Assembly: GCA_033239445.1 (NCBI GenBank)
Contig: GCA_033239445.1_3953.1
Length of the DNA: 64,000 nucleotides
Direction: 5' to 3' (one strand)
Source of the DNA: a phage
Shown: positions 376 through 15,279 of the stretch, in pieces
Layout: each line of letters opens with the position of its first letter
How positions within the stretch are numbered: position 1 is the stretch's first letter
The notes under the pieces: model-generated
Seen by the model: the letters and a program-made list of their open reading frames with translations, nothing else
Database searches by the model: none
What the model was told of the DNA's origin: nothing
Translations under genes and position numbers: made by a program

Positions 376-452
376 TGGTACACCTAGAGAGATTCGAACT
401 CACACTGAGCAGATTCTAAGTCTGCTGCCTCTTCCAATTGGGCTATAGGTGC
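376..452 (-). tRNA. tRNA with anticodon TAG (Leu-type anticodon, class I fold with 5-nt variable loop)
   Basis: Minus strand; encoded CCA, U8-A9, D-stem GCC/GGC, anticodon stem GCAGA/TCTGC with loop CTTAGAA, variable region only 5 nt, discriminator A. Confidence 0.6.
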
Positions 453-705
453 ATTAAATCTTTGTAGAGAACTGCTAAGACGCCAAAGCAACAATGGTAT
501 CAAATGCCTTAACAATTCTCTAAAAAGACCTATTGGCCTCTGCATAGTCTTGCTTAATCCGGTGACTAGAACCTTTGGAGAGCTTGATATTATCTCTTCT
601 CCGTGACACCTACTAGGTGCTTTACCAGTGCCGTGTACGCCAATACACGAAGAGGAAACCTGAAACACTTGCTCGAACAGCGAGTCTCAGCTTTAAATCT
701 TATTA

Positions 706-795
706 GGCGGTAGATAAAGGAGTCGAACCCTCACCGTATTTCTACAATGGCAATAGTTTTCAAGACTATTTGGCTTCCATTAGCCGCTACCTACC
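706..795 (-). tRNA. tRNA-Ser (anticodon TGA), class II with long variable arm
   Basis: Minus strand; anticodon stem atagt/actat with loop CTTGAAA, long variable arm, T-loop TTCGACT, acceptor GGTAGGT/ATCTACC with one G:U, CC encoded. Confidence 0.7.
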
Positions 796-808
796 CCTAA
801 TAAGACTT

Positions 809-891
809 TGGCATGGGACGGAGGATTCGAACCCCTTTGAGTAAGTTTTGGAGGCTTACGCACATGCCTTAGTGTCTTAACATCGTCCCAT
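809..891 (-). tRNA. atypical tRNA-like gene, best read as tRNA-Trp (anticodon CCA) with enlarged D region
   Basis: Minus strand; perfect 7-bp acceptor atgggac/gtcccat with encoded CCA, T-loop TTCGAAT, anticodon-like loop CTCCAAA on a 4-bp stem, 5-nt variable loop; D region about 6 nt too long and position 8 is G. Confidence 0.45.
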
Positions 892-1056
892 ACTATATTT
901 CGAAGCTTACCCTGTTATCTCAACACTGTCAAGCTTCTTCTCAGATTATTTACATGTTCTGGAAAACATGAGATACAGACCACCTCCTTATGAGATTGAC
1001 TCTTTCAAGTCAATGCGGAGACCCATAAAGGTCGTCGTAGTAATCTGCTAACTATT

Positions 1057-1177
1057 TGGCAGTCAAGGTAGGAGTCGAACCTACTTACTATCGAAGGGAG
1101 CTACCCTTCAGCAACTTTCCGACTTTCGTTTATCTCTTAACGCGTATCTAAGATAACTTACTCGTGTTGTCTTGACC
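1057..1177 (-). ncRNA. 121-nt tRNA-like RNA (acceptor stem, T-arm and encoded CCA but no anticodon arm)
   Basis: tgg at 1057-1059, acceptor agtcaag pairs with cttgacc at 1171-1177, perfect T-arm gtagg/agtcgaa/cctac; interior holds hairpin gaaggg-agcta-cccttc and palindromic ttatct/agataa but no 5-7-5 anticodon arm. Confidence 0.45.
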
Positions 1178-1185
1178 ATTAAAAT

Positions 1186-3140: not shown

Positions 3141-4556
3141 TTACCAATCGTAGCGTTCAACCATTACTGCTTTGAGCATTACGCTGATAGGGTCAAACTT
3201 CTCACCACCAAGCAAAGCTTTTAAAGTGGCTGGAGAGAAACCAGATACCATCGCTACACCGTTATCCTTTACAGACACTTCGCAAGTACCGTTACGGTTT
3301 GCTAAGTACCAGAATACCAGTTGTGGCATCTCATATCCAGCTTTCTTGTACTTTTCTTGAATTGCTTCAAAGTTAGTACGACCATCTGCTCCATCAACCT
3401 GATTAAACTGCATATCAGAGAAGATGATAAGCTTACTAGGCATCTCTTTCTGAGTCAAGTTGTTTTTAACACCAATCTCAAGGATTCTTGCAAAAGCAGC
3501 TTGTAGGTCAGTTGAACCATACTCTACATGACTCTTCACTTGACGTAAGCGAGTCTGTAAATCACCACTCAATGTGATGAAGTGAGGTCTGCTAGAGTAA
3601 ACCATCAATTCATCTTTAAAGCAACCTGTATTACGTTCTGAAACGTACAGGGCTAAAGATACACCAATGTCTAGCGCTGTAACAGAACCATGTCGCTCCC
3701 AAGTCATAGATGAAGATACATCTGCCATGCACAGAATGTTCTCACCCTCTTTCATCCAGTTTGGTAAAGCTTTCCACTGCTCATTTGCAACGGTTGCATT
3801 ACCATAACCGACTGACTTTGTAATGTCATAAGGGTAGACTGCACCAGCATTAATCTTAGTCTCACCTTTAGTCAGTGCTGCAATGTATGCTGCATAACGC
3901 TCACCATCTTTACGACTGAAGAGTTTTTGATAACGTGCAGCAGCCAGTGAAGGAAGCTTGCTGTAATCAATCTCTCCGAACTCATTTGCTGAAATCTTTT
4001 GTTCAACAGTATCAGATAGTGCTGACAGAAGAACTCGATACTGCTTCTCTGAAAGATTTGCAAACTTACAGAAACGACGAACAAAACGCATGTGTCGTGA
4101 TTTTACTCGTGGTAACCATTTTGCTGCCAGAGCCGATGTTGCAGGGTCTAATAGTGCCGATTCTAAATGCTTGAAAGCATCTGTTTCGTAACGTGTACCA
4201 ACAAAGATTTTGAAGTCATCATAACGACCTAAATCAGAAATCTTGTCCATGATACGTAATACTTGAAACTCATCAAGAATCCCATCAGAGATTGCTTTAG
4301 TAAGAGTATAACGGAATGCTTTACGCTCACCCATACCTTCTCGTGCATCTCGCATATGTAACAGGATTCGAACTGCTACATCAATATCTTCTCGCATTGC
4401 CTTGTAAAACAAGTTTGGAAGAACTTCTACGTTTGTTCTGCTTGAACCAGCAGCTTTGTAGAAATCTACCAGTGCAGACATTGAAGAGGTGTGGTTAACA
4501 GCACCGTTTTCAGTTAAACCTGCATGTAAATGCGAGTGCTTAAATAATTCGCTCAT
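3141..4556 (-). CDS. rsr: Ro60/TROVE-family RNA-binding protein (Rsr-like) with C-terminal vWA domain
   Basis: 471 aa; MIDAS motif LCMADVSSSM, plus GSTDLQ and KLIIFSDMQF blocks, and upstream EGMGERKAFRYTLTKAI and YPYDITKSVGY, all matching remembered Ro60 landmarks (DVSxSM, GGTD, FTDNETF, HPFHIL). Confidence 0.7.
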   Translation of the reverse strand: MSELFKHSHLHAGLTENGAVNHTSSMSALVDFYKAAGSSRTNVEVLPNLFYKAMREDIDVAVRILLHMRDAREGMGERKAFRYTLTKAISDGILDEFQVLRIMDKISDLGRYDDFKIFVGTRYETDAFKHLESALLDPATSALAAKWLPRVKSRHMRFVRRFCKFANLSEKQYRVLLSALSDTVEQKISANEFGEIDYSKLPSLAAARYQKLFSRKDGERYAAYIAALTKGETKINAGAVYPYDITKSVGYGNATVANEQWKALPNWMKEGENILCMADVSSSMTWERHGSVTALDIGVSLALYVSERNTGCFKDELMVYSSRPHFITLSGDLQTRLRQVKSHVEYGSTDLQAAFARILEIGVKNNLTQKEMPSKLIIFSDMQFNQVDGADGRTNFEAIQEKYKKAGYEMPQLVFWYLANRNGTCEVSVKDNGVAMVSGFSPATLKALLGGEKFDPISVMLKAVMVERYDW

Positions 4557-11827: not shown

Positions 11828-11870
11828 TCTGTCAAGGGGTGTAAAAGCCCCTGTTTAGAGGTAGCGAAAA

Positions 11871-12326
11871 ATGAGTTTAAAATTGAAAGAAGGTCAGAAA
11901 GTTGTCGTTGTTGATTATGCCACAAAGACCGTGATGGCAAAAGGTGAAGTCACTGAGATATACACTTCAGCAGCATACCCTATCGCTGTAAGGATTGACA
12001 ACTCCTTTGTAAAAACCTGCTGTGATGAGGATATGCCATTTCAATCTGGAGAACGCTTAACATTCAATAGTGAGTATCTGTTTCGTGGTAAACATCATAG
12101 CTCACATAATGATTTTGATTTAGAAGTTCTCTCTGAGGAATACTATAACAGAGTTTACCTTGAAAGAGTCTCAAGCACTTACAAGTATCTGATGGATTCC
12201 TTCTTAAAAGAAGCTGTAAAGGTTTCTGAAGATGTAGATAAAGCAATTGCTTTGTTGATTCCACACATCAAGTCTGGTAAATTATCTGTAGAGGCAGTTA
12301 AAGCACTTATTGAGGAAAATCTATGA
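11871..12326 (+). CDS. hypothetical protein
   Basis: 151 aa ORF. Confidence 0.5.
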   Translation: MSLKLKEGQKVVVVDYATKTVMAKGEVTEIYTSAAYPIAVRIDNSFVKTCCDEDMPFQSGERLTFNSEYLFRGKHHSSHNDFDLEVLSEEYYNRVYLERVSSTYKYLMDSFLKEAVKVSEDVDKAIALLIPHIKSGKLSVEAVKALIEENL

Positions 12327-13708: not shown

Positions 13709-13716
13709 GACTATAC

Positions 13717-13740
13717 AGCCCCTTAATTGGGGCTTTTTAT
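13717..13740 (+). terminator. rho-independent terminator
   Basis: agcccc-ttaatt-ggggct hairpin followed by TTTTTATT. Confidence 0.6.
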
Positions 13741-15224
13741 TGAGTAAAATTTACGAAATTTATAATTTTTATAAAATTTGGGATTCACTCCGTTCATCTT
13801 GGGTCACCATGATATGTGATAAAATATCTATACCCTTCTAAACACCCTCTCTAAGCATCATCTCTATATAGTATTATATAGTATTATATAGTATCTATAT
13901 AGCCTCTTAGTCCCTAAATAGTGCTCTCTATATAGCCCTCTATAAAGCCTTCTAAGCCTACCATTAATCAACCCTATACAATCACCTTCCTAACCTCTTC
14001 CTAGCCCCTTAGAAGCCCCTATACTCATCTTAATCTCTAGGTAAACGATAGTACCCTATATAGCAGAATCACTAGGTATTACTAAGCCTCTATATAGACT
14101 GTTATATAGCACTAAACAGGTATTCCCTGTAAAGGCTTATCCTACAAGGTCTAACACGGTACTAACAAGGTCTCTTATAAGCCTGTTAATTCCTGTTTTA
14201 TATAAGATAGTGTATAGATAGTTATTCAGAATTATAAAATTTTTATAAAATAGACTAGGTAGGTTACTTTTTAGGGTCTTTGGAGAATCTGAAAAATATC
14301 TACAGAGGATGTATATCTGCTTGGTAGCCCTTAACAGCCCTGTAACATCCCCTTTGCAAAATCTTAAAATATCATTAACAATCTCTTAACAACTCTTCCA
14401 AGTCCTTAACATCTCTCCAGAGTTCTTAACAGTCTCTTAACAGAACTAACAAGAGCTTAACAAGTCTGTAACATTACTAACAAGAGTCTAACAAGTTGCT
14501 TATAAGTTGCTAAATAGTTAAATCTTAAGAGTTATTTTGTTAAGATAATTAACAAGTTCTAAACCTTTTTAACAAGCTATTAACATGGTCACTATCTCTT
14601 GGTCTATAGTTCCTTATCCTTTCTTAGTGATTCTCTATAAAGCCCTGTATAGCTCTGTATAGCCTCTTCTAAGATTCTCCCTAGTAACTACACCCCAACT
14701 ACCTGTATAGCTCTTTGTAGGGCTTTCTAGGGGCTTATACAGGGACTTCAAAGAGTCTAACAAGCTCTTAACATACCACTAACAAGGATTTAACAAGGGG
14801 CTAACAAGCATAACTATGTTGCATTTGTTAAGATTTTGTTAAGAGAATGTAAAGGGGGCTAACTTTTACGTTACTTTTAAGCTCTTTTTAGACTCCATAA
14901 CATACTTTGAAGTAACTATCAAGCCCCTGTTTAACCATTCACAAGATTCTATCCAGCTTATAAGCTTATACCCTTATAAGATTCTTTTAAGGCTCTAGAA
15001 AGCTCTATAAAGGGTTTTTAAGAAGTGGTTAATATGATTGCTTAAGATGAGATGATAAGCCCGTATAGAGCGTTATAGAGCGTTTTAGGGATTGCCCTTC
15101 CCTTTCGGGTTATGGGCTTATATTTAAGTTGATTTGATAAGAGGATATAGAGTAAGCTATAGAGTTATTATTCTAAATGTATGGGATAGATTCTAGGAAG
15201 GTTTCTTTATAGACGTAAAAAGCC
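13741..15224. repeat. 1.5-kb non-coding region rich in short direct repeats (tattatatag x3, CTGTATAGC copies, about 15 YTAACAAG copies, tatagagcgt x2)
   Basis: No ORF of 60 aa or more on either strand; lies between the 3-prime ends of convergent gene blocks. Confidence 0.6.
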
Positions 15225-15250
15225 CCATCTAAGGGGCTGTAAAGGTGTCT
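15225..15250 (-). terminator. rho-independent terminator (minus strand)
   Basis: On the minus strand agcccc-ttagat-ggggct followed by TTTTTA. Confidence 0.55.
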
Positions 15251-15279
15251 GGGGCTATTTGCCCCGTTGCGGCGACTTG

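Follow-up and report, generated by a model that had tools for sequence, protein, structure and literature searches.

Several described systems bear on the interpretation of unusual tRNA genes in phage genomes. tRNAs of the 8/4 type occur in phage tRNA clusters, with examples for Ser and His, and standard detectors overlook them (Mukai et al. 2017, PMC5389517). A type I tRNA-Leu(CAA) of Streptomyces coelicolor is leucylated by that organism's own single LeuRS; E. coli LeuRS, at 1 nM, did not leucylate it in vitro (Fan et al. 2019, PMC6614811). The E. coli leucine identity elements are A73, the A15-U48 pair, G18G19 and A20a, and neither the anticodon nor the long variable arm is needed, armless minimal tRNA-Leu variants still being charged (Giegé and Eriani 2023, PMC9976931). 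The corresponding bacterial tryptophan set consists of the anticodon CCA, G73 and A1-U72 (PMC9976931). Finally, bacterial YrlA Y RNAs are tRNA mimics that are encoded less than 4 kb from Ro60 and on the same strand (Chen et al. 2014, PMC4201824). In phage Bas63, a relative of the phage described here, gp130 has been noted as Ro60-like and some 'tRNA genes' have been guessed to be Y RNAs; its tRNA genes are mostly non-essential under laboratory conditions (PMC11482910). We compare with these systems two elements from the tRNA array of a Felix O1-like phage.

Two predicted tRNA genes in a minus-strand array

The DNA analysed is a stretch of 64,000 nucleotides (the window; contig GCA_033239445.1_3953.1 of GenBank assembly GCA_033239445.1). 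Its first 6 kb match 336 phage records and share 98% identity with Shigella phages ESh20 and Sf17, and its sequence places the source phage in Mooglevirus, within the Ounavirinae (Felix O1-like phages). The minus strand carries a tRNA array at positions 48-2975, for which ARAGORN predicts 16 tRNAs and Rfam reports 14 at gathering score. In the Sf17 record the array extends past the point at which the window starts, and in total covers 18 amino-acid specificities, all except Trp and Cys. The phage tRNA-Ser (90 nt) and tRNA-Tyr (88 nt) have retained the long variable arm. A plausible sigma-70 site (11 of 12 matches) lies upstream of the array at 3032-3003 and another at 1495-1467; the promoter scan as a whole returned 6 sites against 5.8 expected, which is the chance level. 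An Rfam search (E<=10) of the array spacers and of a further element, X, gave only chance-level matches, and consensus folding of element X yielded no clear structure. Another tRNA-like RNA, with a large insert, is located 170 nt upstream of the Trp-like element described below.

A first-pass annotation, made from the letters alone, had picked out two non-canonical tRNAs, at 376-452 and 809-891. Both elements are where it put them, on the minus strand and inside the array, and its description of them is supported: the first is a class-I Leu tRNA and the second a Trp-like element with an enlarged D region. Additional to that annotation are the strand, the extension of the class-I shape to the whole Leu family of this phage and to many other phages, the 8/4 fold of the Trp-like element and the invariance of its insert.

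The explanation that we consider probable, with some room for doubt, is that both elements function as genes within a polycistronic tRNA operon on the phage's minus strand, one encoding a leucine-accepting tRNA and the other a tryptophan tRNA. It builds on gene structure, conservation, covariation, synteny and identity nucleotides; from these we infer transcription, processing, aminoacylation and decoding. Together, the tRNAs of such an operon would serve nearly all amino acids. Neither ARAGORN nor the Sf17 annotation provides any other Trp tRNA, and the Trp-like gene would raise coverage from 18 to 19 amino acids.

Structure of the Trp-like element

The Trp-like gene (809..891, minus strand) is 83 nt long including an encoded CCA, with the anticodon CCA at 849-851 and G73 as its discriminator. 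It sits 13 nt upstream of tRNA-Ser, a spacing like that of the other genes of the array. Its sequence, divided by structural element, is AUGGGAC G A-UGUUAAG-A CAC UAAGGCAU GUG C GUAAG C CUCCAAA A CUUAC UCAAA GGGG UUCGAAU CCUC C GUCCCAU G CCA. In the corresponding fold, the acceptor stem has 8 bp, the D stem 3 bp (with a loop of 8 nt), the anticodon stem 5 bp and a C.A mismatch, and the T stem 4 bp. The eighth acceptor pair, between G8 and the C at standard position 65, was chosen by an energy-based fold and can form in all 15 variants that we collected (see below); since it never varies, it is compatible with pairing rather than proven by covariation.

The acceptor stem had been described as perfect, and it is. 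The same had been said of the T arm, which does not hold for a conventional 7/5 reading: with five T-stem pairs, the element would contain an A49.C65 mismatch, present in every sequence, and a G51.U63 wobble. The 7/5 reading was rejected in favor of the 8/4 fold, which fits better, removing the mismatch and preserving a 12-bp acceptor branch. An alternative D stem, AUG(U)/(G)CAU, was also rejected; it is invariant in most variants, is lost in phage Wc4-1 and in variant L179, and clashes with the covarying CAC/GUG stem.

Relative to a canonical bacterial tRNA-Trp (7/5 fold, U8, 4-bp D stem, 2-nt connector), the element has a 9-nt connector and a 3-bp D stem, G8 in place of the usual U8 and no obvious U8-A14 pair, together with a conserved C31.A39 mismatch beside the anticodon loop and, in the basal position of the D stem, an A.C. 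The elbow motifs GG and UUCRANU are retained. ARAGORN with default settings makes no call at 809-891, and an Rfam search (E<=10) gives no match to RF00005 there, its best match being tRNA-Sec, with 18.5 bits where the gathering score is 47; the predictors thus assign no ordinary isotype with a high score. The CUCCAAA loop and the enlarged D region reported in the first-pass annotation were confirmed, and its estimate of an excess of about 6 nt was borne out when deletion of the 6-nt UGUUAA from the D region led ARAGORN, at default settings, to report tRNA-Trp(cca).

Matches to the region were found in 259 phage records. Neither Sf17, nor ESh20, nor any of the 40 of those records listed, Felix O1 among them, has an annotated tRNA there; the Felix O1 genome paper lists 22 tRNAs, and the Trp-like gene is not one of them (PMC3185647). 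From structure and conservation we class 809-891 as a conserved, unannotated, non-canonical gene of the tRNA-Trp type and of the 8/4 kind. It would serve as the array's tryptophan tRNA, keeping the 12-bp acceptor branch and looping out the 9-nt connector ahead of the 3-bp D stem.

Compensatory changes across four lineages

Annotated phages, IMG/VR contigs and metagenome contigs provided 15 distinct variants of the Trp-like element. When the 8/4 cloverleaf was laid on their alignment, 98.3% of cells were paired and 8 of the 20 pairs had changed on both sides (27 cells). Shuffled controls reached the observed values in 0 of 500 cases on four of five measures and in 2 of 500 on the fifth, and control registers slid by one to three columns contained at most one pair with changes on both sides. 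The D stem occurs as CAC/GUG, CUC/GAG, CGU/ACG and CAU/GUG, covariation is seen in four of the five anticodon-stem pairs, and the T stem includes an exchange of G-C for U-A. These compensatory changes span Mooglevirus, Felixounavirus, Wc4-1 and a divergent metagenome lineage; Wc4-1 and one divergent metagenome contig keep the element with additional compensatory changes of their own. Variant L179 has two acceptor-stem mismatches.

Within the anticodon loop U33, C34, C35, A36 and A37 never change, in contrast to positions 32 and 38 and to all four stems. The bacterial tryptophan identity set is present: the CCA anticodon and G73 are found in all 15 variants, and the first acceptor pair is A1-U72 in nine, G1.U72 in four and G1-C72 in two.

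An invariant connector and a clustered 8-mer

The connector, A-UGUUAAG-A (875..883, minus strand), lies between the acceptor and D stems and accounts for the 'extra' bases of the D region. All 15 variants carry exactly this sequence, even the two divergent lineages whose stems have all changed. The 8-mer at 875-882, TGTTAAGA, is the same as a motif that is over-represented in the genome, with 15 copies in the window against 5.2+-2.1 expected (about 3-fold). Seven exact copies and about eight with one mismatch fall at 14329-14844, within a 1.5-kb non-coding region, and a dense intergenic cluster of the 8-mer extends over 14384-14844. The distant phage Wc4-1 has 22 copies, with 15 in the second half of its genome against 2.1+-1.6 expected (about 7-fold); clusters lie next to its tRNA array, at 77285-77594, and towards the end of the record. 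The invariance of the connector and the clustering of the motif suggest that the insert may be constrained at the DNA level or through a sequence-specific protein.

The 5' leader of the gene (892..1000, minus strand) is also highly conserved and contains the hairpins CAUGUU/AACAUG and AAGCUU/AAGCUU. An exact 37-mer from it is found in 25 viral contigs, and it is retained in phage SUSP1, that is, also in front of a different Trp allele.

These observations admit an alternative that we regard as possible but doubtful, namely that the Trp-like element is a mimic of tRNAs, or a locus with two uses, with the UGUUAAGA connector as its key part. The connector would then act as an RNA decoy or regulator, or as a DNA site for a protein that binds the TCTTAACA/TGTTAAGA iteron clusters and is tolerated within a tRNA gene. 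A connector that stays fully identical in 15 variants while all four stems change suggests a sequence-specific partner, which the plain tRNA reading leaves unexplained; the enrichment and clustering of TGTTAAGA between genes in the window and in Wc4-1, the rejection of the element by generic tRNA models and the neighboring tRNA-like RNA with its large insert point the same way. However, the covariation of four RNA stems, an unvarying anticodon, G73 and the CCA in the gene would be superfluous to a pure DNA site, and a pure RNA decoy has no need to occupy the Trp slot, where other phages have a recognizable tRNA-Trp. The link between connector and motif was, moreover, noticed post hoc, and the mimic or dual-use reading and the tRNA reading are compatible with each other.

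A more specific proposal, which we would call speculative and rather unlikely, is that the UGUUAAGA connector is a functional recognition element shared with the intergenic TGTTAAGA iteron clusters and that the gene is dual-purpose: either the tRNA gene or its RNA would be bound by an iteron-binding protein, coupling tRNA supply to control of replication or transcription, or the product would be a tRNA-Trp with changed decoding, for example Hirsh-type reading of UGA. Separately, the same proposal would require enterobacterial LeuRS to charge armless Leu tRNAs, against a published statement that the enzyme charges type II alone.

D-arm mutations of E. coli tRNA-Trp (Hirsh G24A and A9C) are known to relax decoding to UGA. 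Recoding of UGA by the D-arm-altered tRNA-Trp was considered for this phage and rejected: TGA ends 25 of the 82 long ORFs in the window, the standard code gives a normal coding density, and the sole long in-frame TGA extension (11870-12326) can be put down to an ORF that lies downstream and shares its frame. Recoding thus finds no support, although readthrough of particular genes may occur.

A second allele at the tryptophan site

SUSP1, wV8 and two viral contigs have a different tRNA-Trp(CCA), of 71-72 nt, behind the same conserved leader. It has an E. coli-like acceptor, AGGGG(U/C)G, and a shortened D arm, GC-UAAGGCA-GC, and is followed directly by an HNH endonuclease gene. This allele scores 32.6 bits in Rfam and is called as tRNA-Trp by ARAGORN with default settings; the wV8 record gives it as a pseudo 'tRNA-OTHER'. 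Since relatives have a recognizable tRNA-Trp at the same site, we take the site to be the Trp slot of the array. The two alleles may have been swapped by endonuclease-driven gene conversion. T4 SegB offers an analogue for exchange of this kind.

The flag in the wV8 record, the listing of two tRNAs of the array as 'pseudo' in the Felix O1 paper (PMC3185647) and the frequent dispensability of phage tRNA genes would fit decay of one gene or of both into pseudogenes, or errors of annotation, with recent common ancestry as the only reason for their retention. We consider this very unlikely, and the pseudogene possibility raised in the first-pass annotation is contradicted by the data on both elements. 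Every helix of the Trp-like element has been kept by compensatory changes across four lineages, with compensation in 8 of 20 pairs and an invariant anticodon-loop core, which largely refutes decay. The Leu tRNA, at 56 bits, belongs to a family conserved from coliphages to mycobacteriophages, and its allelic forms covary. Both elements are conserved in relatives and are therefore, as far as comparative evidence goes, real genes rather than decaying copies; they most likely encode functional tRNAs.

A leucine-identity tRNA without a long variable arm

tRNA-Leu(UAG) occupies 376..452 on the minus strand, with its anticodon at 416-418 and a length of 77 nt including the encoded CCA. Its sequence is GCACCUA UA GCCCAAUUGGAAGAGGC A GCAGA CUUAGAA UCUGC UCAGU GUGAG UUCGAAU CUCUC UAGGUGU A CCA. 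ARAGORN calls it tRNA-Leu(tag), it is annotated as tRNA-Leu TAG in Sf17, and its Rfam tRNA (RF00005) score is 56.1 bits, where the gathering score is 29. An ordinary isotype with a high score is what the earlier annotation had said would tell against its claim, and for this gene that is half the case: the score is high, but the isotype is called as ordinary Leu because predictors name it from the anticodon.

Parsing of the sequence confirmed the previously described 77-nt cloverleaf with U8-A9, a 5-nt variable loop and the loop CUUAGAA. The variable loop, UCAGU, gives the molecule a class-I shape in place of the long arm of class II (a stem-loop of more than 10 nt). It also has a G1.U72 wobble, a U50.U64 mismatch in the T stem, and A73. 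The D arm consists of a 3-bp stem and an 11-nt loop, N13 A14 A15 U16 U17 G18 G19 N20 A20a G21 A22. This arm, GCC-CAAUUGGAAGA-GGC, has the length and register of that of E. coli tRNA-Leu(CAG), GCG-GAAUUGGUAGA-CGC (a reference sequence confirmed at 100% identity in the E. coli genome collection), and is one register off from tRNA-Trp, whose D loop is similar.

A Leu-type D arm, U48 (the last base of the variable loop) and A73 are thus all present, which identifies 376-452, on sequence grounds, as a leucine-identity tRNA that has lost its long arm; a short variable loop of about 5 nt on a Leu-identity body is also what characterizes type I tRNA-Leu. The long arm would be dispensable because bacterial LeuRS reads neither it nor the anticodon. 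In mechanistic terms, the gene would yield a leucine-accepting elongator tRNA in which the arm is gone and A73 and the D-loop and tertiary core read by enterobacterial LeuRS are kept (A14, A15-U48, G18G19 in the Leu register, and A20a). The main caveat is the negative result with E. coli LeuRS: since that enzyme fails on the Streptomyces tRNA, enterobacterial charging of class-I Leu tRNAs cannot be assumed, and leucine charging of the coliphage tRNAs is inferred from identity nucleotides.

Leu(UAG) would read CUA and CUG, and also CUU if its U34 is modified as in the host. The E. coli host strongly prefers CUG, and the leucine codon preference of the phage is the opposite. In the 82 long ORFs of the window, the leucine codons occur per 1000 as CUU 21.9, UUA 18.2, CUG 14.1, UUG 12.8, CUA 6.2 and CUC 4.3. 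The tRNA would accordingly serve a genome of 39% G+C in which CUU and UUA are far commoner, and CUG far rarer, than in the host.

Class-I Leu tRNAs in phages and tRNA arrays

All three Leu tRNAs of this phage are class I (UAA, 79 nt; CAA, 78 nt; UAG, 77 nt). At the site of Leu(UAG), Felix O1, SUSP1 and Wc4-1 carry a different class-I Leu(UAG) allele, and the anticodon stems covary; the Leu(UAA) of Wc4-1 is the only one with a long arm. A similar Leu gene was found in 304 phage records, with at least 80% of its length covered in 252. Mycobacterium phages (98) and Streptomyces phages (56) are prominent among the 304, and the rest include phages of Enterococcus, Lactobacillus, Klebsiella and Synechococcus; a comparable gene is present in a Vibrio phage as well. 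Almost all matches listed are annotated as tRNA-Leu. The short variable loop on a Leu body is shared by the UAA and CAA isoacceptors of this phage and by Leu tRNAs of Mycobacterium, Streptomyces, Enterococcus and Vibrio phages; a loop of the NCAGU type is common to all class-I Leu sequences that we read, and G1.U72 to most.

A pattern scan of bacterial assemblies recovered 57 class-I Leu genes, with all five kinds of Leu anticodon, and about half of them lie inside tRNA arrays (8-kb stretches holding 5-34 tRNAs). Class-I Leu genes were absent from 5,426 complete E. coli genomes, prophages included. Across phages and arrays, one Leu body is thus combined with the anticodons UAA, CAA, UAG, CAG and GAG, leucine anticodons throughout, in agreement with what a Leu-identity scaffold predicts. 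The literature that we found on class-I tRNA-Leu in phages or tRNA arrays consists of the Streptomyces work. Leu(UAG) is a member of a widespread armless-Leu class of phages and tRNA arrays that is annotated but undiscussed in that literature.

The first-pass annotation had left two choices for this tRNA, an identity that differs from the anticodon or a tolerated, unusual Leu tRNA. The D arm, U48 and A73 favor the second. Charging with an amino acid other than leucine (compare the CUN-to-Thr change in yeast mitochondria), or no charging at all, has on its side that E. coli LeuRS left the Streptomyces type I tRNA-Leu uncharged in vitro (PMC6614811) and that the anticodon alone leaves identity unfixed, as LeuRS ignores it (PMC9976931). 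We nevertheless hold it to be highly improbable: the D arm is in the Leu-specific register and accompanied by U48 and A73, the same body always comes with leucine anticodons, and CUA is present at an ordinary frequency in the phage ORFs.

A Ro60-like gene beside the array

Just upstream of the array, and 2.2 kb upstream of the Trp-like element on the same strand, is a CDS at 3141-4556 (minus strand; Pfam DUF2828 and DUF7788). Its product is predicted to adopt a Ro60/TROVE+vWA fold (AF2 pLDDT 88); Foldseek matches it to Ro60 (1yvr, TM 0.64) and to a Thermus phage Ro60 (9l5y, E about 1e-6 to 1e-7). Sequence searches of the PDB with the single sequence and with a profile gave no match, and only the fold search found Ro60.

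The array also contains four unannotated modules (1962-2815), framed by a covarying stem, UUAC-AGA-AGACCGU...ACGGUCU-G-GUAA, and one of them has the YrlA order of T arm, closed hairpin and D arm. The four modules were not found in Wc4-1.

That the Trp-like element itself is a Y-RNA-type partner of the Ro60-like protein, as its position on the same strand, the tRNA mimicry of YrlA Y RNAs near Ro60 (PMC4201824) and the suggestion made for Bas63 (PMC11482910) might lead one to propose, is scarcely credible: it has free, paired 5' and 3' ends, G73-CCA and a complete anticodon arm rather than a terminal Ro-binding stem and closed acceptor hairpin, it gives no Rfam YrlA match, the four framed modules are better candidates, and Wc4-1 keeps the element with no Ro60-like gene detectable by tblastn, for which reason dependence on Ro60 was rejected.

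Significance and comparison with known systems

Hundreds of genomes have been sequenced from the Felix O1-like phages, classic agents of typing and therapy, yet one gene of their tRNA operon is unannotated in the records inspected. As a tRNA-Trp gene it would make the array's near-full amino-acid set complete, a point relevant to the idea that such arrays stand in for host tRNAs destroyed by degradation or by defences that cut tRNAs; one such defence, retron Eco2, cleaves tRNA-Trp (PMC12916289). The gene would also extend the 8/4 architecture to tryptophan, and a natural 7-nt insert between the acceptor and D stems should be useful for work on the structural tolerance of tRNAs and for better tRNA detectors. 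The armless Leu tRNAs of coliphages provide a direct test of the published claim that E. coli LeuRS charges only long-arm (type II) tRNA-Leu.

Among RNAs that resemble tRNAs, YrlA Y RNAs share with the Trp-like element their tRNA-like character and, in this phage, a Ro60-like gene nearby on the same strand. They differ in having a terminal Ro-binding stem and neither an anticodon nor a free CCA end, whereas the Trp-like element is a complete cloverleaf. The stable RNAs C and D of phage T4 (species 1 and 2), which are non-tRNA or tRNA-like RNAs with tRNA-like termini, are co-transcribed with the T4 tRNAs and may offer a parallel to the Trp-like element.

For Leu(UAG) the closest described relative is the type I tRNA-Leu(CAA) of S. 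coelicolor (Fan et al. 2019, PMC6614811), which has the same 5-nt NCAGN loop and a Leu-like core. The loop is ACAGC in S. coelicolor and UCAGU here, with ACAGU and GCAGU in the versions of Streptomyces and mycobacterial phages. The S. coelicolor tRNA is chromosomal and is matched to an actinomycete LeuRS with an adapted leucine-specific domain (PMC6614811), whereas in the phage case three class-I Leu tRNAs occur in phages of E. coli, Shigella and Salmonella and none in the 5,426 E. coli genomes. The canonical class II tRNA-Leu of E. coli shares with phage Leu the D-arm layout (AAUUGG-A-GA loop) and A73, and G1.U72 of Leu(UAG) recurs in E. coli tRNA-Leu(UAA); the E. coli molecules have a 15-nt arm and 87 nt, in contrast to the 5-nt variable loop and 77 nt of Leu(UAG).

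The Trp-like element resembles the 8/4 tRNAs of Mukai et al. (2017, PMC5389517) in the division of its 12-bp branch into 8+4 rather than 7+5. Those tRNAs were described for Ser, His, Cys and Sec and not for Trp, and the allo-tRNA subgroup, with its long V arm and long D stem closed by a tetraloop, is unlike the Trp-like element with its variable region of 5 nt, 3-bp D stem, 8-nt D loop and 9-nt connector. Compared with E. coli tRNA-Trp (trpT), a canonical 76-nt 7/5 cloverleaf with U8 and a 4-bp D stem that is present in a single copy per genome, the phage element has a different frame but the same CUCCAAA loop, G73, A1-U72 and encoded CCA.

Possible allele exchange at the tRNA-Trp site

The unannotated, 83-nt Trp-like gene (809–891, minus strand) is preceded by a leader (892–1000, minus strand) that is nearly invariant between genera, its conservation exceeding that of the Trp-like tRNA itself. 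Within this leader lie two hairpins, a Shine-Dalgarno-like AAGGAGGU and a half-motif, GGUCUG. In phages SUSP1 (L007, 2005–2495) and wV8 (L042, 999–1488) the 83-nt allele is replaced by another tRNA-Trp allele, whose D arm is shortened. This allele lies behind the same leader, and an HNH endonuclease gene comes immediately after it. The arrangement suggests an exchange of Trp alleles driven by a homing endonuclease.

Other features of the tRNA array

The array also encodes a 121-nt tRNA-like RNA, ‘X’ (1060–1180, minus strand), which was called by no detector. It comprises a 7-bp acceptor stem (with G1.U72), a T arm (GUAGG-UUCGACU-CCUAC) and a G73-CCA 3' end, with approximately 75 nt of further hairpins lying between these parts. 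Two compensatory pairs are present, and the large loop carries a GUUAAGA sequence resembling the invariant connector of the Trp-like gene (875–883). The occurrence of ‘X’ is limited to Mooglevirus, SUSP1 and a single further contig.

Further genes of the array are irregular too, and loose D-arm structure seems to be general there. On the minus strand, tRNA-Pro(UGG) (2896–2975; 80 nt) has an irregular D stem, tRNA-Met(CAU) (2648–2724) scores only 31.7 bits, and tRNA-Tyr (2330–2417) reaches 22.3 bits against the Rfam tRNA model. An identical 15-mer, CTTTGTAGAGAACTG (460–474 and 1680–1694 in plus-strand coordinates), lies, in the RNA sense, 8 nt upstream of tRNA-Leu(UAG) and 15 nt upstream of the tRNA-Met at 1589–1665, and could be a processing or promoter element common to both genes.

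Genes for tRNA-Leu without the long variable arm (73–79 nt) are also present in bacterial genome contigs (L043–L162) from Planctomycetota, Acidobacteriota, Actinomycetes and others, where all five kinds of Leu anticodon are represented. They often lie within arrays that hold as many as 34 tRNAs per 8 kb, and in some cases several such isoacceptors are immediate neighbours.

A repeat cluster in a non-coding stretch

Within the non-coding stretch 13709–15279, which lies between convergent genes, TCTTAACA/TGTTAAGA repeats are densely packed (14320–14850, both orientations; seven exact copies and about eight with one mismatch). This cluster looks like iterons, either of an origin or of some other region bound by protein. 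In the distant phage Wc4-1, too, the motif is enriched and occurs in clusters.

A Ro60-like protein and candidate Y RNAs

The CDS at 3141–4556 (minus strand; 471 aa; Pfam DUF2828 and DUF7788) is annotated in RefSeq as ‘RNA-binding protein’. PDB sequence searches with its product returned no match. The protein folds as Ro60, with a TROVE ring and vWA domain: Foldseek matches its AF2 model (pLDDT 88) to Ro60 (1yvr), Thermus phage Ro60 (9l5y) and Deinococcus Rsr (2nvo), with E-values of about 1e-6 to 1e-7. Its homologues number more than 2,400, for the most part in large phages; a likeness to Ro60 was previously recorded for Bas63 gp130 (PMC11482910).

Four unannotated RNA modules (1962–2108, 2106–2196, 2566–2652 and 2728–2815, all minus strand) occupy gaps between tRNA genes, each framed by the same conserved stem (5'-UUAC AGA AGACCGU...ACGGUCU G GUAA-3'), in which covariation is seen (ACCGU/ACGGU versus ACCAA/UUGGU). 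The modules co-occur with the Ro60-like gene, and in Wc4-1 neither modules nor gene were found. All four are candidate phage Y RNAs. In the longest, a T arm (GAAGG-UUCGAUU-CCUUC) is combined with a closed hairpin that covaries and a hairpin resembling a D arm; YrlA-type Y RNAs share this layout.
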